In this document: positions 1-60,644 of the stretch, piece by piece
Layout: every line of letters begins with the position of its first letter
How positions within the stretch are numbered: position 1 is the first letter of the stretch
DNA from: Streptosporangiales bacterium
GTDB lineage: Bacteria > Actinomycetota > Actinomycetes > Streptosporangiales > WHSR01
Direction of reading: 5' to 3'
DNA length: 64,000 nt
Assembly (NCBI GenBank): GCA_009379995.1
Contig: WHSR01000006.1
Location: forward strand, 41,865 to 105,864
The notes under the pieces: model-generated
The model's input: the letters and a program-made list of their open reading frames with translations, nothing else
Database searches by the model: none
Told to the model about the DNA's origin: nothing
Program-made: the position numbers and the translations under genes

Positions 1-321
1 ATCGTCGAGGCGGCGGCGGTCGACGGTGCCGGGTTCTGGCGCCGGATGTTCGAGGTGACGATCCCGTTCACCCTGCCGGTCATCGCTGTGGCCGCGCTGT
101 TCGGCGCGGTGATCACGTTCACCGACATGACGGTGGTCTACCTGCTCACCGGCGGCGGACCTACCCACTCCACGCAGGTGCTGGCGAGCTGGGCGTTCAT
201 TAAGGGGATCGAGGGCGGCGACCTGGCCCAGGGCGCCGCGGTCGCGCTGTTCCTGTTCCCGCTGCTGCTCGCCGCCGTCATCGCGATCCTCACCGCGGTA
301 CGGCGCATGGAGGTCTCATGA
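1..321 (+). CDS. Sugar-type ABC transporter permease, C-terminal fragment (gene starts upstream of window)
   Basis: Frame 1 is open from nt 1. The segment ...EAAAVDGAGFWRRMFEVTIPF... plus hydrophobic helices is typical of BPD_transp_1 permeases. The stop overlaps the next ATG (ATGA at 318-321). Confidence 0.8.
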   Translation: MVEAAAVDGAGFWRRMFEVTIPFTLPVIAVAALFGAVITFTDMTVVYLLTGGGPTHSTQVLASWAFIKGIEGGDLAQGAAVALFLFPLLLAAVIAILTAVRRMEVS

Positions 322-1220
322 CGGCGGCGCCCACTACCGCGCTCGACGAGCGCACGATCGCCCATCTCCGCCGGCGCGCGGCCCGACGGCACGTGGCCGC
401 CCGGATAGGCCTGTACGCCGCCGCGGTGACCGCCGCGCTCGTCTGCGCCGGCCCGTTCCTGTGGTCCGGCATCACCGCCTTCAAGCAGGACACCGACCTG
501 TACCAGAGGGACAACAACCCGTTCATCTACAACGTGAACCCGACCGGCGAGCACGTGAGCTACCTGTTCACCGACACCGCGTTCGCCACCTTCGCCTGGA
601 ACACCCTCTGGGTGGGGCTACTCGTGGTCGCCATCACCCTCTTCCTCGGACTGCCGGCCGCATACAGCCTGGCCCGGCTCAACCGGCCGTGGTCCGGGCC
701 GCTCGGCATCGCGATCTTCTTCGTCTACCTGGTGCCGCCGACGCTGCTGTTCATCTCCCTCTCCCGGGTCGTTGGAGTGCTGGGGCTGCAGGACTCGACC
801 TGGTCGCTCGTGCTCATTTACCCGACGATCACGATCCCGGTCTCGGTGTGGCTGCTCATCGGCTTCCTCAAGGCGATACCGAAGGACATCGAGGAGCAGG
901 CGATGGTGGACGGCTACAGCCGGCTCGGGGCGTTCGTCCGTACGGTGGTGCCGCTGGTCTTCCCCGGCGTCGTCGCCGTGGTCGTGTTCGCGTTCACCCT
1001 GGCCGCCAGCGAGTTCATCTACGCGCTGGCCTTCGTGTCGCCCACCTCGGAGAAGGTCATCAGCACCGGCGTGCCCACCGAGCTCGTGCGCGGCGACGTG
1101 TTCTTCTGGCAGTCGCTGCAGGCGTCGACGGTCCTGGTAGCGGTGCCCATCGCGTTCGTCTTCAACCTCTTCCTGGAGAGGTTCATCGCCGGCTTCACCA
1201 TGGGCGCCGTCAAGGGCTAG
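318..1220 (+). CDS. Carbohydrate ABC transporter permease (MalG-like)
   Basis: 300-aa ORF with about 6 hydrophobic helices and a conserved permease loop (...IEEQAMVDGYSRLGAFVRTVVPL...). Translationally coupled to the upstream permease. Confidence 0.85.
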   Translation: MTAAPTTALDERTIAHLRRRAARRHVAARIGLYAAAVTAALVCAGPFLWSGITAFKQDTDLYQRDNNPFIYNVNPTGEHVSYLFTDTAFATFAWNTLWVGLLVVAITLFLGLPAAYSLARLNRPWSGPLGIAIFFVYLVPPTLLFISLSRVVGVLGLQDSTWSLVLIYPTITIPVSVWLLIGFLKAIPKDIEEQAMVDGYSRLGAFVRTVVPLVFPGVVAVVVFAFTLAASEFIYALAFVSPTSEKVISTGVPTELVRGDVFFWQSLQASTVLVAVPIAFVFNLFLERFIAGFTMGAVKG

Positions 1221-1222
1221 CA

Positions 1223-1305
1223 CCCCCTCCCCCCTTGGCCGTGATCTTGCAGAAATTCAACTTGGGCCGGTTCAAATTTCTGCAAGATCACGGCCAAGGG
1301 AGGGG
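1223..1305. repeat. Palindromic repeat family A, long form (copy A1)
   Basis: Perfect 25-bp arms CCTTGGCCGTGATCTTGCAGAAATT / AATTTCTGCAAGATCACGGCCAAGG around a 17-nt centre CAACTTGGGCCGGTTCA. Near-identical copy at 37098-37169. Confidence 0.9.
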
Positions 1306-1321
1306 CAGATACAGTCGATCC

Positions 1322-1987
1322 ATGGGATTGCTGCGCGACGAGCTGTGGGCCGAGATCGACGACATCTTCAACCGGATCCTCGAGCACCCCTTCGTACGGG
1401 GACTCACCGATGGCAGCCTGCCGCAGGACGCGTTCCGGCACTACGTGATCCAGGACGCGCACTACCTGCGCGCCTACGCGCGGGCGCTCACGATCTGCGC
1501 GGCCAAGGCGCCGACCGAGGTGGACTCCAGGATGTTCGCCGAGCACGCGAGCGAGGCGATCGCCGTGGAGCAGCAGATGCACGCGGAATTCGTTTCGGCC
1601 CTCGGCGGCTCGGCGGAGGGCGCCGCGGCCGAGCCGGTGAAGCCCACCACCCAGGCCTACACCAGCTACCTCCTCGCCACCTGCTACGGAGGGTCGTTCG
1701 CGGAGGCGCTGGGCGCGGTACTCCCGTGCTACTGGATCTACGCCCGGGTCGGCGACGCCCTGCTGGAGCGGTCCTCACCCGACCCGCTGTACGCGCGGTG
1801 GATCACCACGTACGGGGGTGAGGAGTTCCAGGCGGTGGTGAACGCGGTGCTCGACCTCACCGACCGGCTGGGCGCCGAGCTGTCCGCGGCCGAGAAGGAA
1901 CGGATGCGCCAGCACTTCGTCACCACGTCCCGGTACGAGTGGATGTTCTGGGACGCCGCCTGGCAGCGGGAGACCTGGCCGGTTTAG
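1322..1987 (+). CDS. tenA: TenA-family thiaminase II / aminopyrimidine aminohydrolase
   Basis: In-frame ATG inside the artefactually long 461..1987 ORF. MGLLRDELWAEIDDIFNRILEHPFVRGLTDGSLPQDAFRHYVIQDAHYLRAY... is the TenA fold signature. TACAGT lies 6 nt upstream of the ATG (possible leaderless start). Confidence 0.85.
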   Translation: MGLLRDELWAEIDDIFNRILEHPFVRGLTDGSLPQDAFRHYVIQDAHYLRAYARALTICAAKAPTEVDSRMFAEHASEAIAVEQQMHAEFVSALGGSAEGAAAEPVKPTTQAYTSYLLATCYGGSFAEALGAVLPCYWIYARVGDALLERSSPDPLYARWITTYGGEEFQAVVNAVLDLTDRLGAELSAAEKERMRQHFVTTSRYEWMFWDAAWQRETWPV

Positions 1988-2703
1988 TCCTTTGCCGCTG
2001 GGCCGCTGGCCACTACCTGCCGGAGCACCTCGACGGCGGCGTTGCGGTGCTCGTCCAGCACCCGTACCACCAGCTCGACGTCGCCGGAACGGACCGCCGA
2101 CACGATGACGTCGTGCTCGCGGGAGACCCGCTGACGGTTCCGCTCGTCGCCCAGGTACACCGCCCGGTAGGTGTCGGTGGCGTCCCACAGGATCCGGATG
2201 AGCCGCATCAACCGCGGCATACCTGCCGCCTCCAGCAGGATGAAGTGGAACCTGCGGTTGGCGGTCGTCATCGCCATGATGTCGCTCGCCGCGCCGGCCT
2301 TGTCGACCTCCCGCTGCGCCTCGGCGAGACGCTCCAGGTCCTCCTCGGTCAGCCGGTCGATCGCACGACGCGCCGCCTCGCCCTCCAGCAGCTGCCGGAT
2401 CCGGTACACCTCCAGCAGGTCGTCGAGGGACAGGTCGGTCACGAAGTAGCCGCGGTGCGGCCGGTACGTGACCTGCCCCTCGCCCTCCAGGATCTTCAGC
2501 GCCTCCCGCAGCGGCACGCGGCTCACCCCGAGCTGCTCGGCGAGCGCGTCCTGGCGGATGGGTTCGCCGGGGGCAAGCCGTCCGGACAGGATGGCCTGGC
2601 GCAGCTCGGAAAGGACGAATTCCTGAGCCGTCGGCGGGCGAAGGGGCCGCGTCACGGCGGTCACGATACCCCGCCCGGTGTGGCCTGGCACGATTTCAGC
2701 CAT
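1984..2703 (-). CDS. GntR-family transcriptional regulator (FadR/FCD subfamily)
   Basis: N-terminal winged HTH ...LRQAILSGRLAPGEPIRQDALAEQLGVSRVPLREALKILEGEG... followed by a helical FCD-like domain. Confidence 0.85.
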   Translation of the reverse strand: MAEIVPGHTGRGIVTAVTRPLRPPTAQEFVLSELRQAILSGRLAPGEPIRQDALAEQLGVSRVPLREALKILEGEGQVTYRPHRGYFVTDLSLDDLLEVYRIRQLLEGEAARRAIDRLTEEDLERLAEAQREVDKAGAASDIMAMTTANRRFHFILLEAAGMPRLMRLIRILWDATDTYRAVYLGDERNRQRVSREHDVIVSAVRSGDVELVVRVLDEHRNAAVEVLRQVVASGPAAKD

Positions 2704-2712
2704 GAAAGCAGG

Positions 2713-3354
2713 TCATCCAAGGTCGGCGCCCTCTCCGAGCTCGAGCCGGCGGGCATCGGTGTCGATCCGTACCCGTGAGCCGCTGAGGAAAGCGTCAACG
2801 ATGCCGAGACCGTTCGAGTTGAGCAGCCCGTCGTGCACCGAGTACGCGCGGCGCGGCCCGACCTCCCGTACGTAGTCGACCATCTCTGACACCTTGAGCC
2901 ACGGCGCGTTGGTGGGCAACAGCAGCGTGTTCACCGGTACGTCGGGGACCGTGAACTGGTCGCCGGGGTGGAACACCTCGCCGTCGACCAGGAAGCCGAT
3001 GTTGTTGACCACCGGTATGTCGGGATGGAGAACCGCATGCCACTCGCCGTACACCCCCACCTCGAAGCCGGCGACCGAGAACGCCTCGCCGCGGCCCACG
3101 GCGTGTGCGCGCACGCCGGCGTCCGCGAGCAGCCGGCGGACACTCGGATTCGTCCAGATCTCCAGGCCGGGGTTGCGGTCGACGGCGGCGACGATCCGGT
3201 CAACGTCGAAGTGGTCGACGTGCTCGTGGGTGATCAGCACACCGTCGGCGCCGAGCGTCGCCTCCGGCTCGGTAAACGAGCCCGGGTCGACGACCAGCGC
3301 CGCGCCCTCCTTCTCCAGCCGCACACACGCGTGACCCATCTTGGTGAGCCGCAT
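2713..3354 (-). CDS. MBL-fold metallo-hydrolase
   Basis: MRLTKMGHACVRLEKEG...LITHEHVDHFD carries the HxHxDH metallo-beta-lactamase motif. Confidence 0.8.
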   Translation of the reverse strand: MRLTKMGHACVRLEKEGAALVVDPGSFTEPEATLGADGVLITHEHVDHFDVDRIVAAVDRNPGLEIWTNPSVRRLLADAGVRAHAVGRGEAFSVAGFEVGVYGEWHAVLHPDIPVVNNIGFLVDGEVFHPGDQFTVPDVPVNTLLLPTNAPWLKVSEMVDYVREVGPRRAYSVHDGLLNSNGLGIVDAFLSGSRVRIDTDARRLELGEGADLG

Positions 3355-3406
3355 TCGCCCTCACCTGTCCTCTGCTCTCTCGGCTCCGGTGGGTTGGATT
3401 GTTGGC

Positions 3407-4555
3407 TCAGCCGCCGCGGGAGGCGGCCTCGTCCGGCTCCTCGCTCGACTGGGGCCGCGCCGTGAGGATGAGGTACACACCCCTGGTCACCAGCGGCAGC
3501 ACGAAGACGATCAGGAACGCATACGCGAGGTAGGTGTACCCCTGCGACACCAGCGCGATGATCCCGATCCGGGAGAGCACGAAGGCCAGGACGAGAACGC
3601 CCACGATCCAGACGGTCCTGGCCCGAGGGGTCAGGCCGCGGCGGCCGAGGCCCGCGAGGGCGCTGTCCACCCGGTCGAGGAACGCGCGGATCATGGCGGC
3701 GGAGGTGTCGACGACGGCGTAGACCAGGACCACCGCGAAGAGCAGGCTCAGCCCGATGCCGCCGGTCCTTTCCAGCATGACCAGCCAAGGGATGGGCGCC
3801 TCCGTCACCCCCTCGTCGTAGAAGCTCTGCACCGCCAGATAGGTCAGTACGAACGGAATGGTAACGAAAACGCCCGACAGAATACCCGCCGTAATCGTTT
3901 CGCGTCGCTTCTGCTGACGGTCGAGGCAGAAGAGTACGGGCACGACGCTCGGAATGTTGTAGCCGACGTACACCAGGCCCGACACCAACGCGGCGGCAAC
4001 CGTCGGCGACGGCGATTGGGAAACGTCGCCGCTGGCGATGACGCCCGCCGCCTCGTCCCACCGCCGCACCAGGACGAAGATCGCGAGAACGATGATGCCG
4101 ACCGAGAACAGGATGCTGCCGAGCAGGTCGAACCCCTCGAGAATGCTCCGGCCGGAGAACAGCACGATGCCTATCGCGACCAGAACGCCTATGACGGCAA
4201 GCAGATAGGGCACATGAAAGGACCCGGAAAGTACCTCACCGACCGCCGAGGTCACGATTCCGGTGACCACGATCATGAAAACGATCCATATCAGATCGAA
4301 GAGCGGCCAAAGCGGGCCTTTGAGCTTCCGTACGTACTCGCGATAATTGTAGACCCGCAGAATACGGGCCAGTTCGTAGGCGATCGTGCACAGGACCGCG
4401 AACCCTACCAGCAAGACGACGATGGTCCAGATGCCCAGTGCACCGAGCTGGCCCGCGTACTCGACGACCTCCCGTCCCGTGCTGAAGCCTGGACCCACCA
4501 CCACGATCTGAAAGATCGCGGCCGGAAGCACGAACCTCTTGAAAGCGCCGGACAT
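3407..4555 (-). CDS. YkvI-like polytopic membrane protein (putative transporter)
   Basis: Internal ATG (cat at 4553-4555) of the 3407..5041 ORF. MSGAFKRFVLPAAIFQIVVVGPGFSTGREVVEY resembles the YkvI N-terminus (GAGFASGQE). About 10-11 hydrophobic helices. Confidence 0.65.
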   Translation of the reverse strand: MSGAFKRFVLPAAIFQIVVVGPGFSTGREVVEYAGQLGALGIWTIVVLLVGFAVLCTIAYELARILRVYNYREYVRKLKGPLWPLFDLIWIVFMIVVTGIVTSAVGEVLSGSFHVPYLLAVIGVLVAIGIVLFSGRSILEGFDLLGSILFSVGIIVLAIFVLVRRWDEAAGVIASGDVSQSPSPTVAAALVSGLVYVGYNIPSVVPVLFCLDRQQKRRETITAGILSGVFVTIPFVLTYLAVQSFYDEGVTEAPIPWLVMLERTGGIGLSLLFAVVLVYAVVDTSAAMIRAFLDRVDSALAGLGRRGLTPRARTVWIVGVLVLAFVLSRIGIIALVSQGYTYLAYAFLIVFVLPLVTRGVYLILTARPQSSEEPDEAASRGG

Positions 4556-4563
4556 CACGGGCC

Positions 4564-5903
4564 TCACACGATTCCCTCGGTCTTCATGCGCTCGAGCGCC
4601 GTGGCATGGGCCGCGACGATCTGGTCCAGCTCCGATTCGCCGTGAGCCGAACTCAGGAAGGCCAGGTGTACGGGCGAGGACAGGAACACACCCTCCCGCA
4701 GGAGAAGCGCCGCCAGCATCCTCGCCGCCACCTTGTCGCTGCCGTGCAGGTCGCGTACGTTCGCCGGCTTTGCGTCGGTGAAATGGAAGCCCCACAACGA
4801 TCCGGCCCCGGTGACGTGCGCCGAGATGCCGAGCCGGCTTACCAGCGCGGACAGCTCCGAACGGAGACGATCTCCGCGCGCCTCGAGCGTGGAGTAGATC
4901 TCGGGATTCTCCAGAAGAACGTCGAGCTGCGCGACTCCCGCGGCGGTGGTCATCGGGTTGGCGGCATGCGTGCCGCCCGCCACCACGGAAAGGCCATCGT
5001 CGCCGGCCAGCACCCTGTCCACGAGGTCCCCCCGCCCGCATACGGCTCCCACCGGAAGACCGCCACCCACGATCTTTCCGAAGACAGTCAGATCCGGCCG
5101 CACGCCGAGGAGGCCAGCCGCCCCTCCTGGCGCGAGCCGAAAGCCGGTGATGACCTCGTCAGCGATCAGCACGACGCCGCACTCCCGGCAGGCGTCGCCC
5201 ACGGCCTGGAGGAAGCGGCGCTCCGCGGGCAGGGCACCACCCCCGCCGAGGACGGGTTCCACGATGACGCAGGCGAGGTCCTCCGCGTGCTCCCGGATGA
5301 TCTCCGCCGCCCTGTCGCTGTTGAAGGGAAGCGTCACGACGGTGCCGGTGACCTCCGGCGGTACCCCGGCGCTGTCCGCGACGGCCGCGGGGCGATCGGC
5401 CGTGCCCCCCAGCTGTGTATAGCTGTGCAGCAAGAAGTCCTGCCCCCCGTGCCAGCCACCCTCGAACTTGGCGATCTTGCCCCGGCCCGTTGCGGCGCGG
5501 GCGAGGCGAAGCGCCGACAGGGTCGCCTCGGTCCGCTGGAAACGAAGATCACCCTCTCCGCCCCCGGCACGGAGGAAACGATGCGCCGGGCGAGCTCGTA
5601 CTCCCCCGTGCCCGGCGCTCCGAACTGGATGCCCCGGGTGAGCTGCTCGGCGATCGCGCGCTCCACCCGCTCGTGGCGGTGGCCGAGGATCAGCGGGCCG
5701 AATCCGAGGTTGCAGTCCAGGTACCGGCGGCCGTCCAGGTCATAGAGGTACGGGCCCTCGGCACGGACCGCGTACGTGGGCACCGGCCACCAGAAACGCG
5801 AACGGGTGGCCCCGCCCGGCACTACCTGACGAGCCTGCTCGTAGTGGGCGACGCTTTGCGGCAAGAGTTCGCGTATTTCCTTTTCCACCGGCTCCAGCAT
5901 CAT
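4564..5903 (-). pseudogene. Class-III aminotransferase (glutamate-1-semialdehyde aminomutase-like), split by a 1-nt frameshift near 5532
   Basis: The N-terminal ORF (5334..5921) ends ...GAERVIFVSSG. The expected continuation [40 protein letters not shown] is in the -1 frame and runs into ORF 4564..5433. ATG at 5903 has a GAGAGGA RBS; alternative GTG at 5921. Confidence 0.7.
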
Positions 5904-6026
5904 CTGGGCGTCCTCTCGCACGACCGGACAGTTTGATCATTATCCTAAAATTCCCATTTAGGGGAAACCATCCATAGCCGTGAAGCGACGAGGTGCCGGG
6001 AAGCCGGAGCGCGGTTGTGAAGGGGG

Positions 6027-7481
6027 TCAGCCCGCTCCGCCAAGAGCGACGGTCACCGTGAAGGCCATCAGGACGACGAGTGTCCAGACGGCCGGCGCGG
6101 AGCTCTCCAGGTGCATGCGGCGGCGGTTCGCCCGGGCCGCGAAGGCGGCGCTCCGAGGCACCCACCACGGGTCGTGGCGGGCCTCCAGCAGGTAGAACGT
6201 CAGGCCGAGCCCGGCGCCGTACGTCAGGTGGCCGACCAGGCTCGGAAACGTGCTCGCGACCCCCTGCGCGGTCCACTGTGGATCGCCGCCGAGCAGCACC
6301 GGCAGCAGCGTCACCCCGCCCAGCACCCACCACAGGAAGCCGTACGCGGTCCCCCACCCCACCGCGGACGCCAGGTCGTGGGTCTGCCGGCGGAACAGCA
6401 GGCCGTAGGAGGCGCCGATGATCAGCGAGATCGCGAGGTGGACGGTGAATCCGACACCTATCGAGCTGGCGCCCACCAGCCGGGCCACCGTGGGAAAGAA
6501 GCCGATCTGGACCATGACCAGGGTGAACAGGAGGCCGCCGACGCAGCCGGCAAGCACGCCACGGCCGACCGCACGCAGCGTCCTGGCGCCGGGCCCCTCG
6601 TCGCCGGCACGCTCGACCGGCGCGGTGAACAGCAGCCGCCACGCCCTGTCGAGCCAGGCATAGGCGGCCGCCACGGCCACGCCGAGCAACAGGTACGACG
6701 GCAGCGTCGGAAACGCCTCGCCGACGTCCTCCGCCGACCAGGTGAGCCTGCCCCCCTCGACCAGCGGCACCACCGTCAAACCCAGCACCACCCACAGCAG
6801 GAAGCCGTAGCCCGCTCCCCGGATCAGGGACGGTCCCGTCGTGTCGGGCGCGCGGGGGTGCAGCATCCCGAACCCCGCACCGGCGAGGATTCCCAGGCCG
6901 AACACGGCCAACGTGATCATCCCCAACGGCCGCTGCATCATCGACGAGGAGACGGCCAGCGGCCCGTACTGCTCGCCGACCACCGCGGTGAGCAGCCATG
7001 CGGGAAAGATGCCGGCGATCGCTCCCCGCAGCACCACACCGGCGGTCACCGACCGACGCGCCGGTGCCCTCGAGCGCAACCAGGCGAGGACGAGGCCGGT
7101 TGTCGCACCGTACAAAAGGTGCCCGAGGAGGCTGGGAAACGCGTCGCGAGCGGCAGCCGCCGTCCACGCCACCTCGCGGCCGAGCAGGGCCGGCAGCAGA
7201 GTGAGCGCGCCGAGGTACCACCAGAACATGCCGTACGCCAGACCCCAGAACACCGTCTCGCCCGCACCGGGACTCTGGTGGCGTACGAGAACGGCGAACA
7301 GCGCGCCGACAAACGCCGCGATCGCCATGTGCACGGCGAACCCGACCGACGGCGAGTCCACCCGAACCAGCGAGGCGACGGTCGGCAACACACCTAGCTC
7401 GACCATGGCCGCGCCGAACACCAGCCCACCGGCGAGACCGGCCACCGTCCCGGACCTGGCCGCCGCCCAGAACCCCGTCAT
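6027..7481 (-). CDS. Polytopic membrane protein built from three copies of a ~130-aa four-helix module
   Basis: Each internal repeat ends in FPSLLGHLLYGATTG / FPTLPSYLLLGVAVA / FPSLVGHLTYGAGLG. The ATG overlaps the NDH-2 stop (TGATG); alternative GTG at 7484. Confidence 0.75.
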   Translation of the reverse strand: MTGFWAAARSGTVAGLAGGLVFGAAMVELGVLPTVASLVRVDSPSVGFAVHMAIAAFVGALFAVLVRHQSPGAGETVFWGLAYGMFWWYLGALTLLPALLGREVAWTAAAARDAFPSLLGHLLYGATTGLVLAWLRSRAPARRSVTAGVVLRGAIAGIFPAWLLTAVVGEQYGPLAVSSSMMQRPLGMITLAVFGLGILAGAGFGMLHPRAPDTTGPSLIRGAGYGFLLWVVLGLTVVPLVEGGRLTWSAEDVGEAFPTLPSYLLLGVAVAAAYAWLDRAWRLLFTAPVERAGDEGPGARTLRAVGRGVLAGCVGGLLFTLVMVQIGFFPTVARLVGASSIGVGFTVHLAISLIIGASYGLLFRRQTHDLASAVGWGTAYGFLWWVLGGVTLLPVLLGGDPQWTAQGVASTFPSLVGHLTYGAGLGLTFYLLEARHDPWWVPRSAAFAARANRRRMHLESSAPAVWTLVVLMAFTVTVALGGAG

Positions 7482-9286
7482 CACACCGCTTCCTTCTCCG
7501 CGTGGTCGGGCACGGGCCTGGACTCGGTGAGCACGACGTCACGGGTGAAGAACAGGTCGAGTATCCAGTCGAGTGCTACCCGAACCTTCTTCTCCAAGCC
7601 CGGCAGCTTGCCGAGGTACACACTGCGCCACAGCGCCCAGGCGACCAGCCCGGAGAACGGGCGGCCGCGGAGCTCCGCGGCGCCCTTCTGGTGGCCGAGC
7701 GCGACGAGCAGGCCGATGGTGCGGAACCGGAACGGCTTGACCGGCCGGCCGTCCAGCGCCGCGACGATATTGTCGGCGGCCACCTTGCCCTGCCGCAGGG
7801 CGTGCTGGGCGGTCGGCGGGTGGAACTGGCCCTGCGCCGCCACGTCGGGGATGGCCGCGCAGTCGCCGAGCGCCCACACGTTGGCCGATCCCTGTGCGCG
7901 GAGGTTCGGATCGACGGCGACCGCGCCGTTCCTGGCCCGCGCGATGGGAAGCGCGGCGACCAGCGGATTGGGCTGGTTACCCGCCGTCCACACCAGCGTG
8001 CGCGCCGGCAGCCGCTGCCCGTCGCCGAGCACCACCTCGTCCCCGGTCGCCTCGGCCACCCGCGCGGACAGGACGAACTCGATGCCCCGCCTCCGCAGAT
8101 CCGCCAACGAGTAGTCGGCGAGCTCCCGGCTGAGTTCGGGCAGGATGCGGTCTTGGGAGTGGACAAGCACGAATCGCAGCTGCGCCGCGTCGATCCGCGG
8201 GTAGTAGCGCCGCACGTCGTGCACCATGTCGAACAGCTCGGCGATCAGCTCGGCGCCGGCGAAACCACCGCCGGCCACCACGAACGTGAGCTGCCGGCGC
8301 TGCTCCGCCGGATCCGGCTCGACGTCGGCCCGCTCGAGCAGCCCGATGACGTGGTCGCGCAGCCGGGTCGCGTCCTCGAGCGTCTTCAACGCGAAGGAGT
8401 GCTCTGCCACCCCGGGAAGGCCGCGGTAGTTGGCGGTGGCGCCGAGCGCGAGCACGAGGTGGTCGTACCGCAGGGCCTCGGCAGCGAAGTTGTCACCCCG
8501 CCGCAGCCAGATCTCCTGCCGGTGCACGTCCACCGCCTCGACCCTCGCCCGGTGGAATACCGTGTGCGGGCACGACGCACGTACCGGCGCACTGATGTGC
8601 CGCGCGTGCAGCGCGCCCGCGGCGACCTCGGCCAGCATCGGCGTGAACAGCAGGTAGTTGCTGTCGCTGACGAGTGCCACCTCGACGTCGGAACGCCGGG
8701 CCAGCCGATGTTCCAGCGCTTGGGCGGTGCTGACCCCGGCGAAACCGCCGCCCAGGACGACGACACGACGCGGCGGCCGGCGGGGTCGCGGCTTGGCCGC
8801 CACCGGCCACGACCGGGCGAGCGCCGCAAGAACGTAGTGCGTACCGACACCGGTCAGCGCCCCGTACAGCATGCGGCCGACCAGGTACGGGAACGTGGCA
8901 TTCGCGTCGGCCAGTGACCAGGTCACCGCCTGACCGGTGAGCGCCGGAAGCAGCGTAAGCGACTCCGCCACCCACAGCAGCATGCCGAGCAGTACGCCGG
9001 TGCCGGCGGCCGCCGCGTGCCCGCGCGGCCGGTACCCGACGACGGCACCGATGACCGCGCCCATCAGCACGGCGAGGACGAGCGCCAAGCCCACTCCGGG
9101 GCTGTCCGGCCCGGCGCCGACGAAGCCCATGTCGCTCATGCCCTGCAATGCCTGGATCAGCACAACCACGAACCCGGCCGCCAGGCCGACCATCGCCCCG
9201 GCGGCTGCCAGCACCGATCGGGGCAACTCCGAACTTCGAGTCGGCTCGGTCACAGCGCCCGATTCCACCACAACTTCGCTACCCAC
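7481..9286 (-). CDS. ndh: Type-II NADH dehydrogenase (NDH-2) with an N-terminal four-helix membrane module
   Basis: RRVVVLGGGFAGVSTAQALE... and ...LTFVVAGGGFAGAELIAEL... are the two Rossmann GxGxxG motifs of NDH-2. Residues ~20-160 are homologous to the repeats of the downstream gene (ATFPYLVGRMLYGALTG). Confidence 0.8.
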   Translation of the reverse strand: MGSEVVVESGAVTEPTRSSELPRSVLAAAGAMVGLAAGFVVVLIQALQGMSDMGFVGAGPDSPGVGLALVLAVLMGAVIGAVVGYRPRGHAAAAGTGVLLGMLLWVAESLTLLPALTGQAVTWSLADANATFPYLVGRMLYGALTGVGTHYVLAALARSWPVAAKPRPRRPPRRVVVLGGGFAGVSTAQALEHRLARRSDVEVALVSDSNYLLFTPMLAEVAAGALHARHISAPVRASCPHTVFHRARVEAVDVHRQEIWLRRGDNFAAEALRYDHLVLALGATANYRGLPGVAEHSFALKTLEDATRLRDHVIGLLERADVEPDPAEQRRQLTFVVAGGGFAGAELIAELFDMVHDVRRYYPRIDAAQLRFVLVHSQDRILPELSRELADYSLADLRRRGIEFVLSARVAEATGDEVVLGDGQRLPARTLVWTAGNQPNPLVAALPIARARNGAVAVDPNLRAQGSANVWALGDCAAIPDVAAQGQFHPPTAQHALRQGKVAADNIVAALDGRPVKPFRFRTIGLLVALGHQKGAAELRGRPFSGLVAWALWRSVYLGKLPGLEKKVRVALDWILDLFFTRDVVLTESRPVPDHAEKEAV

Positions 9287-9452
9287 CGCCCCAATATCGC
9301 CTTACCGATCGCTTACGAACCGCGTCGGTGTTGTTCGGCCGGGCTGGGGGCTACCGAACAACCGCGGCATCCCGTAGACACGGCGCGTCAACGCTGACTG
9401 TGACCTGTCTCCCGGTGACAGGTCCTATCGGGGAGCGAAAGGGGACCTACGA

Positions 9453-10016
9453 ATGCATAGGACATGGAAGACCGCGCTGACCACGCTGGCAGCGGCCGGC
9501 CTGCTGCTCGGCGGGGCCGCCACGGCGGCCAGCGCCGGGTCGCCCGATGGCACGTCATCAGAGCACGAACTGTCCGCGAGCGAGTCGGCGGCCGTCCCGG
9601 CGGGAACGCTGCCGGGCTCGCCGCCGTGCAAGGCCACCCTGGGGAACCTTCTGGCCACCTACAAGCACGGGAAGTGGGCCAAGCTGGAGATCTACTGGGA
9701 CAACGCGCACAAGACCAACTGCGCCTACCTGCGGCACGGCCCGAAGGTGCCGGACGGGCAGCACGAGACCTACGTCCTGCTCTTCACCTGCAAGACCAGC
9801 ACCAAGGGCAAACCGTGCAAGGCGATCAAGTATGACCCGCCGCGCTACGACTACGACGGCGGCCCGTACACCACCTACGCCGGAAAGGTCAGCGTCAAGG
9901 CGGCCGGTAAGTGCATCTTCGCCAGAGGCGCCGTCAAGGCCGGCGGCGAGTGGCGCCGCATCGACAGCCTCGGCAGGAAGGGCCTGAAGGACCCCAAGGG
10001 CAACCACTGCGGCTAG
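9453..10016 (+). CDS. Secreted hypothetical protein
   Basis: Signal peptide MHRTWKTALTTLAAAGLLLGGAATAASA. Cys-containing mature part, high GC3. AAAGGGGA RBS region upstream. Confidence 0.6.
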   Translation: MHRTWKTALTTLAAAGLLLGGAATAASAGSPDGTSSEHELSASESAAVPAGTLPGSPPCKATLGNLLATYKHGKWAKLEIYWDNAHKTNCAYLRHGPKVPDGQHETYVLLFTCKTSTKGKPCKAIKYDPPRYDYDGGPYTTYAGKVSVKAAGKCIFARGAVKAGGEWRRIDSLGRKGLKDPKGNHCG

Positions 10017-10037
10017 ACCACCCTCCCCCGCCACGGT

Positions 10038-10068
10038 CCCCCGCCCGGCATCACCCCCCGGGCGGGGG
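10038..10068. terminator. GC-rich hairpin between convergent genes
   Basis: CCCCCGCCCGG (10038-10048) pairs with CCGGGCGGGGG (10058-10068), 9-nt loop. Lies between the stops of 9453..10016(+) and 10090..10905(-). Confidence 0.5.
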
Positions 10069-10089
10069 ACCTCGATTTGGGCTGGGCCG

Positions 10090-10905
10090 TCAACGCCGCA
10101 TCAGGTTGTGGCAGGCGATGGCAGCGGCGGCGACCACGTTGAGGGAGTCGACGCCGAGCGCCATCGCACCGGCGCTCATCGGGATGCACACGGCCTCGTC
10201 GGCCTCCTGCACCCAGCGAGACGACAGCCCGTCGCCCTCGGTGCCCAACAGCAGGGCGACCTGCTCGCCCATGGGTGCCTTGTCCATCGGGACCGCCGAC
10301 TGATCCGGGGTAAGCGCCAGCAGCCGGAAACCGGCAGCACGCAACTCCTCCAGACCGTCGTACCAACTCGTCATCCGGGCGTACGGAACCGCGAAGACCG
10401 CACCCATCGACACCTTGACCGACCGCCGGTACAGCGGATCCGCGCATCTGGGCGACAGGGCCACCGCGTCGACGCCGAGCGCCGCCGCGCACCTGAAGAT
10501 CCCGCCGACGTTCGTGTGGTCGACGATGTCCTCGCAGACCACGAGCCGCCGGGCGCCTGCAATTACCTCGGCGACCGACGCCAACGGCAGCCGCTGCATC
10601 GACGCGAGCGCGCCGCGGTGGATGGGAAAGCCGGCGATCCGCGCGGCGACCTCGTCGTCCACCAGGTAGGCGGGAACGTCGGCGCCGTCGAGGACATCGC
10701 CCATCGAGGTGAGCCAGCGCCTGGTCAGCAGGAACGAACGGAACGGGTAGCCGGCACGGGCGGCGCGGCGGATGACCTTCTCGCCCTCGGCCATAAACAG
10801 CCCGTGCCCGGCCTCGAGGCTGGTGCGCAGCTGAACGTCCCGCAGCCGTACGTAGTCCGCCAGCCGCGGGTCGTCCGGATCGTCGACCGTCACGACGCAC
10901 GCCAT
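10090..10905 (-). CDS. TrmH/SpoU-family RNA 2'-O-methyltransferase
   Basis: ...DPRLADYVRLRDVQLR...GLFMAEGEKVIRRA... N-terminal region and C-terminal SpoU motifs (LLLGTEGDGLS, IPMSAGAMALGVDSLNVVAAAAIA). Confidence 0.85.
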   Translation of the reverse strand: MACVVTVDDPDDPRLADYVRLRDVQLRTSLEAGHGLFMAEGEKVIRRAARAGYPFRSFLLTRRWLTSMGDVLDGADVPAYLVDDEVAARIAGFPIHRGALASMQRLPLASVAEVIAGARRLVVCEDIVDHTNVGGIFRCAAALGVDAVALSPRCADPLYRRSVKVSMGAVFAVPYARMTSWYDGLEELRAAGFRLLALTPDQSAVPMDKAPMGEQVALLLGTEGDGLSSRWVQEADEAVCIPMSAGAMALGVDSLNVVAAAAIACHNLMRR

Positions 10906-11020
10906 GACCCCAGTGTCGCCGAACCCCGAGGAGGGATGATTCAGGGTCGTATCGGGGATTTCCCCGACGAACCCCTATGCGGTCGGCGGGCATACTCGGC
11001 TTCGTGCGGTTCTCGCGGAG

Positions 11021-11671
11021 GTGGAGCAGCAACCGGTGGGTGTGATCGACACGTACATCGCCGAGCTCGGCGGCGCGCTCCGCGGCCCCGGGCGGGTGAA
11101 GGCCGACCTGCTCGCCGAGGCGCGCGACAGCCTGGTCGACGCGACGGAGGCGTACCAGAGCCGCGGCCTCGACCGGGAGGCGGCCGAGCACGAGGCGGTG
11201 GGCGAGTTCGGCACGGTCCCGGAGATCGCGCCGGGGTACCAGACCGAGCTGGGCCTGGCTCAGGGGCGGCGGACGGCGCTGCTGGTCTTGCTCGTCCTCG
11301 CCCCGCAGGACCTGGTGTGGGACGCCTGGGGGGCGGTTGCGCCCGACTGGACCGGGAGCCCGGGGCCGGGGTACCTGCTGGTGGACGGGGCGGTGAAGTG
11401 GCTCGGCAGCGCCGCCATGGTCGGCGCGCTGCTCGCCGTGCTGGTGGGCGGGATCGGCCTCCGATACCTCGGCGCCCGCCGCCGGCTCACCCGGGGCATC
11501 GGCGTCCTCGGGTTCGCGGTCAGCGGGGTGTTCACGGTGTCGGGTGTGCTGCTCACCGTTCTCGCCCCCAGTGGCGGCTGGCCGTTCGACGTCGTCGGTC
11601 TGCTGGCGTTCTTGGTCATCCCGCTGACGTGCACCGCGATGTCCGCGCGCCGCTGCCTCGCCGCCGGGTAG
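11021..11671 (+). CDS. Membrane protein with N-terminal 'permease-prefix'-like helical domain
   Basis: IDTYIAELGGALRGPGRVKADLLAEARDSLVDATEAY... followed by 4 hydrophobic helices. This architecture usually accompanies PadR regulators. Start codon uncertain. Confidence 0.55.
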   Translation: MEQQPVGVIDTYIAELGGALRGPGRVKADLLAEARDSLVDATEAYQSRGLDREAAEHEAVGEFGTVPEIAPGYQTELGLAQGRRTALLVLLVLAPQDLVWDAWGAVAPDWTGSPGPGYLLVDGAVKWLGSAAMVGALLAVLVGGIGLRYLGARRRLTRGIGVLGFAVSGVFTVSGVLLTVLAPSGGWPFDVVGLLAFLVIPLTCTAMSARRCLAAG

Positions 11672-11691
11672 CCGGAACGCCTCGGGCCGTC

Positions 11692-12024
11692 TCAGGTCTG
11701 GGGCGAGGCCGGTCGGAGCACCCCGTCGATGACTGCCGCGAAGTCCCGCCACGCGGACCGCTCGGCGGCGAGCGCGCGCCGGCCCGCTGCGGTGAGCCGG
11801 TAGGTACGGCGCCTGCGTCCGCTTACCGTGGCCCAGGCGCTGCGCAGGTAGCCCGCCCGCTCCAGCCGCCGCAGCGCCGGGTACAGCGTGCCGGTCGGCA
11901 GTTCGAGGGCGCCGCCGCTACGCTCCTGCAACGCCTCCATGATGGCGTAGCCGTGCCGGGGCTCCTGCTCCAGGACGGCGAGGATCAGGGCGTCCAGGTG
12001 CCCGCGCAACGCATCCGGCTTCAT
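11692..12024 (-). CDS. PadR-family transcriptional regulator
   Basis: LDALILAVLEQEPRHGYAIMEALQERSGGALELPTGTLYPALRRLERAGYL is the canonical PadR winged HTH. TAGGCT lies 6 nt upstream of the ATG (leaderless-type promoter). Confidence 0.9.
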   Translation of the reverse strand: MKPDALRGHLDALILAVLEQEPRHGYAIMEALQERSGGALELPTGTLYPALRRLERAGYLRSAWATVSGRRRRTYRLTAAGRRALAAERSAWRDFAAVIDGVLRPASPQT

Positions 12025-12117
12025 GTAGGCAGCCTATGGGTAGAGTGCCACACTCGTCTACCTACATGTAGACCATCTATATAAGCGACGCGTCGCGCGG
12101 GCCCAAGGATGGGGCCG

Positions 12118-12882
12118 TCAGGCGTCGCCCATCTCGGCCACCGCGTCGGCGTCCGTGACAGGGGCGGGTCCCTGCGAGCGCTGTACCGGCACGCAGCAAT
12201 CGCCCTGCTGCTCGAGCAGCCAGTCGAAGTCCTCCACCTTGATGAAGCAGTCGCCGTCGTGGCCCCACTCACGTCCCCACGAGTTGCGCAGCCGGATCAC
12301 CGGGATGCCGCGTTCCTCTCCCGGCAGGCGGCTTCGCAGCGCGAGCCCTCGCACCAGGATGGCGTGACCGCCAGCGACCTCCCCGTCCCGGTCGACCTCG
12401 AGAAGCCCGGATGGCCGCGGCGTCATCATCGAGGAAAGCCACGGGATGCCGATGATGACAGGTCCGGAGTACGAGACGGCGCGCAGCGCGTCGTCGACGC
12501 CGAAGGCCCACCGGTATTCGTCCATGTAGCCGAGGTTCTGCACGATCTTGGCTCCGGCGAGGACGGAGGTTCCCGAATAGTCCTCCCCCGGAAACTCGTC
12601 GACCTTCTGCGCGTCCCGGTAGATCTTCTGCGCCAAGGAGGTGTCCGCCGGGACCGCGACCGGTAGGGCCGCCAGCTCGTGTGCCCAGCTGAAGCCCACA
12701 CAGGCGCCCTCTTTGCCCTGGTCGAGCCAGGCGTCGCAGCGCCACGCGTTCGAGCGCAGCGGCAGCTCCTCGGTGAGAAGGGAGCGAATCGCGTACCCGC
12801 GGCTTCGCTCGTCGAATTGCACAAGTCGGTCGAGGCGGGGATCGGAGGCAGTCGAACCGTCCCGAAGCATGATGTCTGCCAT
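12118..12882 (-). CDS. Papain-like (C1 family) cysteine peptidase, no signal peptide
   Basis: Internal ATG of ORF 12118..13470 with a GGAGGG RBS 7 nt upstream. Catalytic-type motifs QGKEGACVGFSW (Cys), GGHAILVRG (His) and NSWGREWGHDG (Asn-Ser-Trp). Confidence 0.75.
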   Translation of the reverse strand: MADIMLRDGSTASDPRLDRLVQFDERSRGYAIRSLLTEELPLRSNAWRCDAWLDQGKEGACVGFSWAHELAALPVAVPADTSLAQKIYRDAQKVDEFPGEDYSGTSVLAGAKIVQNLGYMDEYRWAFGVDDALRAVSYSGPVIIGIPWLSSMMTPRPSGLLEVDRDGEVAGGHAILVRGLALRSRLPGEERGIPVIRLRNSWGREWGHDGDCFIKVEDFDWLLEQQGDCCVPVQRSQGPAPVTDADAVAEMGDA

Positions 12883-12923
12883 CTGGTATCCCTCCCAGTA
12901 CGGCGAGATGTTGGGTTGGGGGG

Positions 12924-12975
12924 CCTCGCTCTTGTCCGTGGTCTTGAATTTCTGCAAGATCACGGGCAAGAGGGG
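12924..12975. repeat. Palindromic repeat family A, short form (copy A2)
   Basis: CTCTTGTCCGTGGTCTTG - AATTTCTG - CAAGATCACGGGCAAGAG. Same outer arms as A1/A4 with the centre deleted. Confidence 0.75.
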
Positions 12976-13082
12976 AGCCGCGAGCAACGTTGACACGGAC
13001 CGCCGGCAAACGGTCCCTGCCGACGGGCATATCTCGGGACAGGGATCGCTGCCCCTTCGGGCAACCGCCGAGGCGGCCGGCC

Positions 13083-14192
13083 TTACCGGGAGCGGATGAG
13101 GCCCGCCTCCGCGCAGGCCGCCTCCAGCTCGTTCAGGCCGAAGGCCTCGACCGGGCCCAGCGCGCCCGTTCCGGGCAGGTCCCCGGCCGCCGCCCGTACG
13201 GCGCCCCAGGCCAGCAGATGGCCGGTCAGCTCGTAGGGGTCGCCGCCGGACAGGTGTACCTCGCCGAGCTGCGTGCCCGACCCGTCGAAGGCGGCGGCCA
13301 CCGCGTACGTGCCCACCCGGGCGCCCGCGGCCGGGTCCGGGTCGCGGCCCGGGCGGCGCATCGCCCGTTCCCCGGCCGCCCGCAGCCCCGCCCGTACGCC
13401 TGGCACCCGTGCCAGCAGCGGAGAGACTCGGGAGGCGGTGTGCAGGGCGCGGGTCGCCGTACCGAACCAACCCAGGTAGACGTCGACCTCCCGAAGCCCC
13501 GGGAACAGGCGGGGCAGCGCGAAGTGTTCGGAGCCGCCGATCGACAGCGCCTCGCGGGGCCGCCCGTGCACGTGGAACGAACGCATTCGCGCGGCCGCCC
13601 TCTCCTCCCGGATCCCGTCACGCCAGGCGAACATCGGCTCCAGTGCGACCCCGGCCAGCGAGGCACGGGTACCCCGGCTCGCCGCGCCGCGCAGGGCGCC
13701 GGGACCGCCGAGGGAGAAGTAGCCGACCTCCACCCGGGTGGCCTGCTCACCGGCCTCCCGGAGCACGAGCGCGCCCGCCAGGTTGCCCGGCACGAAGTCG
13801 TACCCGAACGCGGTCACCAGCGCGGTGCCGGCGGCCTCCGCACGGGGTCCGAAGTCCTCGAAGACCCGACGCACGAACGGGGGCTCACCGGTCGAGTCGA
13901 GGTACCAGGCGCCCGCCTCGATCGCCGCCGCCACGGCCGGGTCGCCCAGCCGGGTGAACGGGCCGACGGTCGACACGAGCACGTCGCCGCGGTCGACGAG
14001 GGCCCGTACGGTTGCCGGGCGGGCGACGTCGGCCACGGCGGTGCGCGTCCCGCCCAGCTTCGCCGCCAGGGTGCGCAGGCGATCCTCGTCGCGGCCGGCG
14101 ATCGTCGCCTGCGCACCCCGCTCGACCAGTGACCCTACGGTCAGCCGACCGGTGTAGCCGGTGGCCCCGAAGACGACGACGCGCCCGGACAC
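13083..14192 (-). CDS. Saccharopine dehydrogenase-family NAD(P)-binding oxidoreductase
   Basis: MSGRVVVFGATGYTGRLTV... Rossmann start. The VSTVGPFTRLG and YLDSTGEPPF segments are typical of this family. Confidence 0.8.
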   Translation of the reverse strand: MSGRVVVFGATGYTGRLTVGSLVERGAQATIAGRDEDRLRTLAAKLGGTRTAVADVARPATVRALVDRGDVLVSTVGPFTRLGDPAVAAAIEAGAWYLDSTGEPPFVRRVFEDFGPRAEAAGTALVTAFGYDFVPGNLAGALVLREAGEQATRVEVGYFSLGGPGALRGAASRGTRASLAGVALEPMFAWRDGIREERAAARMRSFHVHGRPREALSIGGSEHFALPRLFPGLREVDVYLGWFGTATRALHTASRVSPLLARVPGVRAGLRAAGERAMRRPGRDPDPAAGARVGTYAVAAAFDGSGTQLGEVHLSGGDPYELTGHLLAWGAVRAAAGDLPGTGALGPVEAFGLNELEAACAEAGLIRSR

Positions 14193-14225
14193 ACCGACAA
14201 CCTACACCGGCCGGCGGACCGTGGA

Positions 14226-14987: not shown

Positions 14988-14993
14988 GCAGTT

Positions 14994-15081
14994 CCCCCCT
15001 TTCTTCAGTGATCTTTGCTATACCCCGCGTGCGAACGATCATTCACGGGAGGGATGCCAAGATCACGGGCGAGAGGGGCGG
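14994..15081. repeat. Palindromic repeat family A, diverged copy with enlarged centre (copy A3)
   Basis: The right arm AAGATCACGGGCGAGAGGGGCGG (15059-15081) closely matches A6. The left arm ...TTTCTTCAGTGATCTT (14994-15015) matches only in its inner part. Confidence 0.45.
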
Positions 15082-16808: not shown

Positions 16809-16837
16809 ACGCCTAGCCTATGCCGAATCCGGACCGG

Positions 16838-17110
16838 TCAGCCCACCTCGCGGAGCAGCTTGTCCATGGCGAAGACCCGTTCGCGCAGCTCCGATACCTC
16901 CACCCGGAGCGTACGCAGCTCCTGCAGGGTCTTCGTCTGCTCGCCGGCCACCCGCTCGGCGAGCGCGCGGTAGTCCACCTCGCGTCCCGCGCAGCTCCTG
17001 GCGCGCAGCGTGGCGAAGCCCTGCCGGATGAGCACGGTCAGCACGACCGTCAGCGTCAACACCGTACCGGCGACCGCGATGGCCCCCACCAGATTGCCGT
17101 CGATATCCAT
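16838..17110 (-). CDS. Small single-pass membrane / coiled-coil protein (paralog 1)
   Basis: N-terminal TM helix (LVGAIAVAGTVLTLTVVLTVLI) and C-terminal LRTLRVEVSELRERVFAMDKLLREVG. Paralogous to 17241..17567. Confidence 0.55.
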   Translation of the reverse strand: MDIDGNLVGAIAVAGTVLTLTVVLTVLIRQGFATLRARSCAGREVDYRALAERVAGEQTKTLQELRTLRVEVSELRERVFAMDKLLREVG

Positions 17111-17240
17111 CCGAGCCCCTCTGCCTGATCACCATCGGAACTCGACCACTGTGCCGGCAGCGCGGCGCGGGGCACATCCGGGACGTACCCGAGGTTGCCC
17201 TGACTCCGACCCGGAGGGCGCCCTGACCGTGTGCGACCTC

Positions 17241-17567: not shown

Positions 17568-17612
17568 CGCGGACCTCCCGAAGACACGCCATGCCTAACT
17601 TAGCCTGGAGTC

Positions 17613-19933: not shown

Positions 19934-19970
19934 CGCTGCTGAAGAAGGATCACGTTCGGCCTCTCATCAC

Positions 19971-30159: not shown

Positions 30160-30195
30160 CTCGCCGACTCCGCGTACCGATCGGCTGGGTGCCCC

Positions 30196-37074: not shown

Positions 37075-37097
37075 GACGTTCGCGCCGCCGTACGGCC

Positions 37098-37169
37098 CTG
37101 CCTTGGTCGTGATCTTGCAGAAATTCAACTCGGGCCGATTCAAATTTCTGCAAGATCACGGCCAAAGGG
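37098..37169. repeat. Palindromic repeat family A, long form (copy A4)
   Basis: CCTTGGTCGTGATCTTGCAGAAATT-CAACTCGGGCCGATTCA-AATTTCTGCAAGATCACGGCCAAAGG. Differs from A1 at a handful of positions. Confidence 0.9.
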
Positions 37170-37206
37170 ATCAGCCGACGCACAAGCGGCGCGGCAGACT
37201 GGTCCC

Positions 37207-38428: not shown

Positions 38429-38478
38429 CACGTGATCTTGCAGAAACTGCCCACTTCGGCAAGATCATGGGCAAGGTG
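38429..38478. repeat. Palindromic repeat family A, diverged copy (A5)
   Basis: CGTGATCTTGCAGAAA ... GCAAGATCATGGGCAAGG. The outer left arm has diverged. Lies in a divergent promoter region. Confidence 0.55.
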
Positions 38479-60593: not shown

Positions 60594-60644
60594 CCGCCCT
60601 TCTTGCCCGTGATCTTTCTGCAAGATCACGGGCAAGAAGGGCGG
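60594..60644. repeat. Palindromic repeat family A, short form (copy A6)
   Basis: Perfect 23-bp stem CCGCCCTTCTTGCCCGTGATCTT / AAGATCACGGGCAAGAAGGGCGG with 5-nt loop TCTGC. Lies between convergent stops. Confidence 0.9.

Follow-up and report, generated by a model that had tools for sequence, protein, structure and literature searches.

A stretch of 64,000 nucleotides from a Streptosporangiales bacterium (contig WHSR01000006.1, positions 41,865 to 105,864; the window in what follows) contains six copies of a palindromic repeat that we call family A. The copies are 50-85 bp each and are built on a box, GTGATCTTGCA. We consider it rather probable that family A is a non-autonomous palindromic element that behaves like repetitive extragenic palindromic (REP) sequences or miniature inverted-repeat transposable elements (MITEs), resides at the ends of genes, and is mobile or was mobile until recently. 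It is an unnamed repeat family and not a new kind of system. Its most unusual traits are that the box is common to several actinomycete lineages, that it also forms exactly phased composites, and that its TGA triplet is used as a stop codon.

Six copies had been listed in an earlier note on this DNA, and all of them are confirmed, at positions that are correct or off by a few bases. The G+C content of the window is 70.3%; called genes make up 86-89% of its length, and 11-14% is non-coding. The 17-mer GTGATCTTGCAGAAATT, with at most three mismatches allowed, has 7 matches in the window versus 0.03 expected, and the 10-mer CCGTGATCTT, with at most one mismatch, has 17 versus 2.6 expected. A hidden Markov model of the half-element detected neither a seventh copy in the window nor a solo box outside the palindromes in these 64 kb.

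From left to right, a family-A element has a C-rich outer arm, the box as (GCC)GTGATCTTGCA(GAAATT), an interior that varies, the box again in inverted orientation, and a G-rich outer arm. The corresponding inverted box-pair pattern is GTGATCTTGCA-N(0-30)-TGCAAGATCAC, and the direct-pair pattern is GTGATCTTGCA-N(30-42)-GTGATCTTGCA. The copies are non-coding and lie at gene boundaries, as the earlier note had it, except that the right arm of copy A3 enters the 3' end of the PolX gene; this is the only overlap between family A and called genes, and it amounts to 19 bases.

Two copies represent the long form, in which arms of about 25-29 nt that include GTGATCTTGCAGAAATT flank a 17-nt centre. A1 (1223..1305) has 29-nt arms at 1229-1257 and 1275-1303 that are 97% complementary. 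It is composed of the box GTGATCTTGCAGAAATT (1241-1257), a 17-nt centre CAACTTGGGCCGGTTCA (1258-1274) and the inverted box (1275-1291), and it is preceded by the stop codon of an ABC permease gene (1220) and followed by the start of tenA (1322). A4 (37096..37170), between the stop of a flavin adenine dinucleotide (FAD) monooxygenase gene (37074) and the start of MgtC (37207), has the boxes and the architecture of A1. Its arms carry the two mismatches that had been described earlier, and its centre CAACTCGGGCCGATTCA is identical to that of A1 at 15 of 17 positions.

Two other copies are short. In A2 (12924..12977) the left arm CTTGTCCGTGGTCTTG is joined straight to AATTTCTGCAAGATCACGGGCAAG, with two G-T mismatches; A6 (60594..60644) has perfect 23-nt arms CCGCCCTTCTTGCCCGTGATCTT / AAGATCACGGGCAAGAAGGGCGG closed by a 5-nt loop. 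In their alignment the right arm (AA)TTTCTGCAAGATCACGGGCAAG is whole and the left arm ends at GTGGTCTTG / GTGATCTT, so both are best read as long forms that are missing the tip of the palindrome. This fits the earlier proposal that the short forms are long forms with a deleted centre. The genes on either side of A6 are convergent and stop at 60584 and 60653. A2 has minus-strand genes on both sides, a saccharopine dehydrogenase gene with its stop at 13083 and the gene 12118-12882, whose start faces it.

The last two copies are diverged. Only the outer arms CAGTGATCTT / AAGATCACGG (the right arm also given as AAGATCACGGGCGAGAGGGG) are recognisable in A3 (14994..15081), around an unrelated 40-nt interior. 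This copy is located between the minus-strand genes of PolX and an MscS-like protein, and the start of the latter (14987, minus strand) is 6 nt from its left end. A5 (38429..38478, ACGTGATCTTGCAGAAACTG...CGGCAAGATCATGGGCAAGG) lies upstream of a minus-strand Macro-domain gene (start 38359) and is the sole window copy in a 5' or divergent region. Some copies had previously been assigned to promoter regions; this is possible for A5 and for no other copy, A2 included.

Comparison with relatives shows that individual copies come and go. The syntenic relatives are 76-86% identical to the window at the nucleotide level; one of them is a forest-soil contig (L040). The gap between the permease gene and tenA is 101 nt long in the window, where it holds A1, and 25 nt long in L040, with no trace of A1. 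L086 is the relative with the most similar TenA (82%); its version of the gap measures 39 nt and holds only the outer arms of A1, CCCCCTTCCCCTTGGAC|GGGG. The PolX gene of L040 has its own stop codon and no A3 at its 3' end. Conversely, the gap between tenA and the GntR gene, which is of about 0 nt in the window, holds a degenerate family-A copy CGTCCGTGATCATGCAGAAACG in L040. As relatives thus present an A1-empty site, an A1 remnant, a PolX gene free of A3 and an extra copy, family A turns over site by site. Its elements behave as units: at individual intergenic sites, close relatives have gained them, let them decay from the centre or lost them, as would be expected of an element that is mobile or at least unstable. 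In another relative (L087, 125-235) an unrelated GC-rich hairpin occupies the gap between the permease gene and tenA.

The nearest named relative is Carbonactinospora thermoautotrophica (73% by TenA, 79-80% by PolX). No box was found in about 43 kb of its DNA, and by this sample family A appears to be lineage-restricted. Beside PolX in this species (L089, 13784-17924) there is a series of WXG100, YwqJ-deaminase and SUKH-3 cassettes with a Prim-Pol gene, which looks like a polymorphic toxin-immunity locus. At another of its loci (L041), the DnaB gene contains an intein and a LAGLIDADG domain.

The earlier note had proposed a search for the motif beyond the window, and the box is indeed present in Sphaerimonospora and in soil metagenomes. 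A scan of metagenomes with the inverted pair of exact boxes gave 39 loci. About 30 of the 39 are high-GC soil hairpins with the family-A order: a C-rich flank, (GCC) box, interior, inverted box, and a G-rich flank. The interior is self-complementary, commonly CCTCGTG-TCGA-CACGAGG. One of the loci (L069) is closest by PhoX to Actinomadura, Spirillospora and Nonomuraea, at no more than 77%, and is Streptosporangiales-like; no box was found in a 22-kb sample of Actinomadura craniellae. Two hairpins stand in tandem in L059. In L065 (1-170) the contig begins within a box hairpin, after which units GGGAATTTATGCAAGATCACCGAGCCC... recur every 41 bp; this is a second phased-array architecture besides the one described below.

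Low-GC metagenome matches were rejected as unrelated. L049, L070, L077 and L079 are eukaryote-like satellite DNA with no open reading frames (ORFs); L075, L054/L073, L058 and L082 were discarded as well. In viral contigs the palindrome pattern has 0 matches, and 7 matches of the 17-mer all fall in low-GC coding DNA (peptide DLAEI) and are due to chance. A BLAST search with A1 and with one of the composites (L016) against 72,556 plasmids returned no match.

An 18-mer scan of genome contigs yielded at least 32 loci; among the matches listed, 29 are chance matches and 3 are real, all from Sphaerimonospora, a member of Streptosporangiaceae. There the box stands inside composites of about 250 bp (L016, 2020-2290; L028, 5625-5890; L023, 240-500). 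The repeated unit is CGTGATCTTGCAGWWACTCGCAG. Each arm contains three units at exactly 53-bp spacing, the units are inverted on the other arm, and a small central palindrome lies between the arms. The arms (about 80-140 nt) are diverged and inverted, with 76% complementarity in L016; in the alignment of the arms, boxes included, the mean column identity is 73% and the best pair of arms reaches 76%. The spacers are only partly similar and not complementary, with small motifs kept (GACCTGC, CCAGGG), so a composite is not a single hairpin. To us it resembles a phased array of binding sites, and 53 bp would make about five helical turns. Two types of ends, CCCCCCGCCGTGATC and AACCCCATGTGGTGATC, give a composite a defined orientation.

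These composites too sit behind stop codons. Their neighbours encode a glycosidase, an epimerase, a DUF5719 protein and a peptidase; in L016 the two neighbours are the genes of a family-1 glycosidase and an aldose epimerase. An Rfam search of this composite found nothing. Two other explanations of the composites were tried and ruled out. Nested self-insertion disagrees with the non-complementary spacers of the arms, and a CRISPR array (clustered regularly interspaced short palindromic repeats) disagrees with units that flip at the centre, with three units per arm and with spacers that share motifs. Further repeats flank the composite of L028: to its left are C-rich repeats of 13 nt (ACCACCCCCCGAA), to its right G-rich tandem repeats of 17 nt (GGGTYTTGAGGTTCTTY). 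The contigs L023 and L065 each have a copy at one end, so the repeats seem to break assemblies.

The placement behind genes is a general feature of the family. A stop codon within 200 nt faces 29 of 33 hairpins, and stop and box are a median of 18 nt apart. For 24 hairpins both flanking genes could be called: 11 pairs are convergent, 12 co-directional and 1 divergent (L048). The flanking genes (permease, TenA, PolX, MgtC, Macro, hydrolase, PhoX, TetR and others) have no common function.

Some copies run into the coding sequence. The triplet TCA at 15063-15065 in the right arm of A3 is the stop codon of PolX on the minus strand, and the same arm encodes the last four codons of the gene. PolX in the window (15063-15080) ends with …LRKGRPSRP*, which is four residues longer than …LRKGR* in L040. 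By this comparison, A3 has taken the place of the original stop, with the box providing a new one. The TGA of the box (G-TGA-TC) serves as the stop in 5 further gene ends, which makes six genes together with PolX.

The copies are able to form very stable hairpins in RNA. The folding energy on the plus / minus strand is -58.7 / -61.7 kcal/mol for A1 (z about -10), -43.3 / -42.1 kcal/mol for A4 (z about -7.5) and -46.9 / -49.2 kcal/mol for A6 (z about -9.4). For A2 it is -40.7 kcal/mol on the plus strand versus -28.6 on the minus strand; the plus strand folds better because both mismatches are G-T there. The z-score ranges from -6 to -10 for A1, A2 (plus), A4 and A6, and from -2.8 to -5.3 for A3 and A2 (minus), while A5 (-17.9 kcal/mol, z = -1.4) folds no better than shuffled sequences.

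Family A matches no Rfam family at the threshold. Rfam finds only a tRNA in the window, and in an E-value search A1 matches only eukaryotic models of miRNA precursors, far below the threshold, which is a generic signal of a long hairpin. The motif was described nowhere in the literature that was searched; both results are in line with the earlier note, which could not match it to a named family. A canonical intrinsic (Rho-independent) terminator was rejected, as the hairpin is present and the U-tract is absent; a scan for consensus terminators in positions 1-20000, which include A1-A3, flagged none. A promoter inside the element (TTGCAG-N18-TTCAAA) was rejected as well, since it has no acceptable -10 hexamer and a promoter scan found none.

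Family A might nevertheless consist of immobile RNA hairpins kept by selection, that is, terminators with no U-tract or stabilisers of mRNA, whose stems are shared by descent, local duplication or gene conversion and whose differences among relatives reflect ordinary loss and divergence. The copies directly behind stops, often between convergent genes, and their very stable folds on both strands agree with such an explanation. So does the hairpin just after phoX, which is present in both L069 and L092 (PhoX 89% identical); a compensatory change of A-T to C-G is seen in its box, and the interiors are unrelated. Moreover, other hairpins fill the same gaps, as in the permease-tenA gap of L087 and after phoX in A. 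craniellae, so these gaps seem to need some hairpin. The latter is an ordinary GC-rich hairpin in the gap between phoX and purL (L093, 12110-12150).

Still, we find this explanation unlikely. A terminator needs no set stem sequence, yet an 11-mer box is common to lineages that NCBI puts in different orders, and the phased direct arrays of Sphaerimonospora and L065 cannot form one hairpin. There is no T-run and no G-U bias on the transcribed strand. L040 has no hairpin of any kind in the A1 gap or at the end of PolX. Mycobacterial RNA polymerase reportedly terminates poorly at hairpins that have no U-tract (Czyz et al. 2014), which also counts against selected terminators.

The arms co-vary more than shuffled ones do. 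In 14 metagenome copies of equal length, 83% of the cells pair, and double changes in the arms number 20 versus 11.2 +/- 2.7 in shuffles, a value reached by 0 of 500 shuffles. Many of the copies, however, combine two arm alleles (CCTCGTG and CTTGGTG), and we read the pattern as subfamily structure together with exchange between copies, and not as proof of selection on the structure.

The box also offers a different explanation, according to which it is the operator of a LacI/GalR-type (MalR-like) repressor or of another helix-turn-helix (HTH) protein and the copies are sites of a regulon, decoys or roadblocks. The box contains the core CTTGCAG of the MalR type, and 7 of the 9 CTTGCAG occurrences in the window fall in family A. 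A1 and A4 have this core twice, once per arm with 27 nt in between, and A2, A5 and A6 have it once; in several metagenome hairpins the spacers are 7-16 nt. Operators of MalR and AcrC (LacI/GalR family) have the core 5'-CTTGCAG-3' repeated in direct or inverted orientation across a spacer of 3-15 bp, and AcrC binds CTTGCTG-N3-TAGCAAG and CTGCAAG-N2-CTTGCAG (PMC5526262). Family A is like these operators in having the exact core in an everted (CTTGCAG...CTGCAAG) or inverted arrangement.

One locus is especially suggestive of an operator. In L048 (1161-1255) the divergent region between genes of a LacI-family regulator and a HipA-like kinase contains two perfect 16-bp palindromes GTGCAAGATCTTGCAC, which flank an exact everted box pair GTGATCTTGCAC-N10-GTGCAAGATCAC. 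By its sequence this cluster looks like an operator of the MalR/AcrC type with the half-site inside a family-A box. The position of the L016 composite between glycosidase and aldose epimerase genes points the same way, and the phased boxes argue for protein binding.

As an explanation of the whole family, an operator seems improbable to us. A location in promoters of a coherent sugar regulon was found for L048 only: the copies stand behind stops of functionally unrelated genes and not in promoters, L048 being the single divergent case among the 24. The spacing of the cores varies from about 3 to 27 nt and often exceeds 15 bp, unlike that of MalR/AcrC operators. Conservation reaches past the 7-bp core (GCCGTGAT...) and covers a longer box. 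Self-complementarity, as seen in the interiors and outer arms, is of no use to an operator, and elements appear and vanish as a whole. Finally, a 7-mer match to one among many known motifs can arise by chance. We regard the CTTGCAG core as a lead to the identity of a binding protein, and not as the explanation of family A.

It could also be that the palindromes do not move themselves and that some other element or enzyme prefers them as targets or leaves them as footprints, such as an insertion sequence (IS) of the IS110/IS1111 type that inserts into REP-like hairpins or a recombinase whose site is a pair of boxes. Several IS110-family elements target REP sequences. Some copies lie at breakpoints of synteny: A2 and A3 mark the borders of segments in which the window differs from L040, and right after the phoX hairpin the neighbouring gene changes between the contig bearing P0241 and L092. 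On the other hand, no copy is present at most of the breakpoints that separate the window from L040, neither such an element nor a recombinase was found beside any copy in the window of about 64 kb or in about 200 kb of high-GC loci, and the multiplication of the palindromes is left unexplained. We rate a footprint as very improbable.

We return to the mobile or recently mobile element that we prefer. Family A would have spread in trans, now or recently, as a non-autonomous element of REP- or MITE-like behaviour, by means of an enzyme that we predict to be encoded outside the window. The box may be the recognition site of this enzyme or of another protein: Sphaerimonospora keeps it in phased arrays, three per arm at 53 bp, between spacers that are not complementary. 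Long palindromes would then lose the centre or the tip and give rise to short forms and remnants.

By analogy with known repeats, the transcribed hairpin may act at the 3' ends of mRNAs and between cistrons. REP sequences in the malE-malF operon and Correia elements are models for such effects at the RNA level; the Correia hairpin is a substrate of RNase III. A family-A hairpin could block 3' exonucleases and could pause or terminate transcription despite the absence of a U-tract; between cistrons it would be a likely target of a double-strand RNase. If so, copies behind genes would be tolerated or mildly useful, and other copies would be purged.

A number of observations weigh against this reading. 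No target-site duplication can be read by comparing the filled sites of A1 and A3 with the empty sites of L040, at 76-86% identity and with diverged flanks; at most, a CA...CA is possible at A1. No parent element or partner gene was found in the window and the fetched loci, and the count of six copies covers 64 kb of the source genome. As regards a role of the hairpin in RNA, direct reading reveals no T-run after any of the six copies, A2 is weaker by 12 kcal/mol on the strand that is probably transcribed, and the mismatches (G-U 7 vs A-C 4) give no significant sign that the transcribed strand is under selection. In many copies from metagenomes the inner stem is chimeric and mismatched. Exact boxes were required for the metagenome set, so the conservation of the box in it is ascertained and not measured. 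As judged from the sequences, the phoX hairpins of L069 and L092 may reflect either retention under selection or repeated use of one gap, and they agree with selection for a hairpin there as well as with a mobile element.

The search for a partner covered the genes of the window and the surroundings of other copies. The window genes are ordinary chromosomal ones (ABC permease, TenA, GntR, NDH-2, SpoU, PolX, GcvT, Dtd, CysS, IspF, PPDK, thiolase and others). Pfam searches of about 58 window ORFs, 13 of which have no Pfam match, detected no transposase, integrase, Y1 or REP-associated tyrosine transposase (RAYT) and no IS110 domain, in agreement with the earlier note. An autonomous copy, that is, two boxes 0.5-3 kb apart around an ORF, was not found in about 210 kb of high-GC loci. 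The earlier description of a non-autonomous REP/MITE-like family is therefore upheld in part: the dispersed non-coding palindromes and their site-wise presence or absence agree with it, and membership in REPINs (REP doublets that form hairpins) or MITEs is not established, because neither a target-site duplication nor a parent IS or a RAYT came to light.

We compared family A with several groups of known repeats. Like REP sequences, REPINs and bacterial interspersed mosaic elements (BIMEs) of Enterobacteria (E. coli among them) and Pseudomonas, it consists of short extragenic multi-copy palindromes behind genes or between convergent genes; it shares with REPs and REPINs stable hairpins at the 3' ends of mRNAs, the absence of a transposase from the element and restriction to a lineage. 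The mosaic clusters of BIMEs resemble the arrays of Sphaerimonospora and L065, but the family-A arrays are direct and phased and not alternating. A single arm of family A is not a hairpin: the 25-nt arm CCTTGGCCGTGATCTTGCAGAAATT has no internal complementarity, and a hairpin forms only between the arms; the long form therefore does not consist of two REP hairpins. As tabulated for 78 half-elements, there is no GTAG-type head, and the box is preceded by a C-rich part and then GCC. The REP/REPIN label fails in detail because of the lone arm that is no hairpin and the absent head. Family A differs also in that no RAYT (Y1) gene is seen in the 64 kb and that its hosts are high-GC actinomycetes, for which no report of REPINs or RAYTs was found in the literature searched.

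With MITEs (Correia/NEMIS of Neisseria, ERIC/IRU, RUP) family A has in common a size of 50-280 bp, inverted terminal parts and the absence of an ORF, as well as presence/absence polymorphism at orthologous sites, extension into gene ends and hairpins in transcripts. Unlike them, it has no visible target-site duplication and no known parent IS with the same ends, and nearly all of it in the window is one palindrome instead of terminal repeats around a unique core. Weak resemblances of its ends to those of Tn3, IS6/IS6100, ISL3, IS3 and IS91 and to pC194-type nick sites support no claim.

Inverted pairs of DNA uptake sequences in terminators of Neisseria and Haemophilus are similar in having a short box on both arms of a hairpin behind genes and variable loops. 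But uptake sequences are very dense and also occur singly and inside genes, whereas no solo box was found in the 64 kb, and natural competence of the Neisseria/Haemophilus type is not known from these actinomycetes. Hairpin terminators that have no U-tract ("I-shaped") are reportedly found in Actinobacteria (Mitra et al. 2008-2009; Term-seq studies of Streptomyces). Family A is like them a set of GC-rich hairpins with no T-run right after stops in high-GC genomes. However, I-shaped terminators are unrelated to each other in sequence, while family-A copies share the box and the outer arms, and the box is present also in arrays that are not hairpins.

A more specific suggestion is possible, and we put it forward as doubtful. 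The 11-bp box could be the site of a vertically kept and yet unrecognised DNA-binding enzyme or nucleoid protein of filamentous actinomycetes (Streptosporangiales and Carbonactinospora-like organisms), which would assemble on phased boxes (53/41 bp) and copy or maintain the palindromes. Such a system would be a counterpart of REPIN-RAYT with a different protein, possibly one related to the MalR-type HTH.

Interspersed palindromic repeats are well studied in Proteobacteria and hardly at all in high-GC actinomycetes. If our reading is correct, family A would serve as a marker of Streptosporangiales and of a little-known lineage close to Carbonactinospora. It would also be a source of variation at gene ends, with new stops and short C-terminal extensions as in PolX, and would equip operons with very strong hairpins, such as the one that separates the permease gene from tenA. 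The defined box could be used to seek a partner protein in cultured Sphaerimonospora.

Several other features of the window were noted. A tRNA-Thr(TGT) gene at 30087-30160 is followed by the ORFs 30133-30636 (plus) and 30633-31796 (minus), both with no Pfam match. At 3355-5745 two long ORFs overlap, 3407-5041 (minus) and 4606-5745 (plus), with lower third-position GC (about 0.79-0.84) and no Pfam match.

The window contains a second palindromic family, B, with four copies (28768-28850, 32443-32507, 45336-45402 and 49999-50065), all intergenic. It consists of CGCCGAGATCTATGTTGTGGGG, an oriented loop of about 20 nt (ATTTTGTCCGATTCG, in either orientation) and then CCCCACAACATAGATCTCGGCG; its arm has 8 matches versus 0.28 expected. 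Family B was not found in L040, L086-L089, L091 or one locus of C. thermoautotrophica (L041). Its outer end GCCGAGATCT and the family-A end GCCGTGATCT are alike at 9 of 10 positions, and because of this resemblance the two families may share a recognition site. At 50055-50090 three tandem 12-nt units (GATCTCGCCGGT, GATCTCGCCGGT, GATCCCGCCGGT) start within the right arm of the family-B copy B4.

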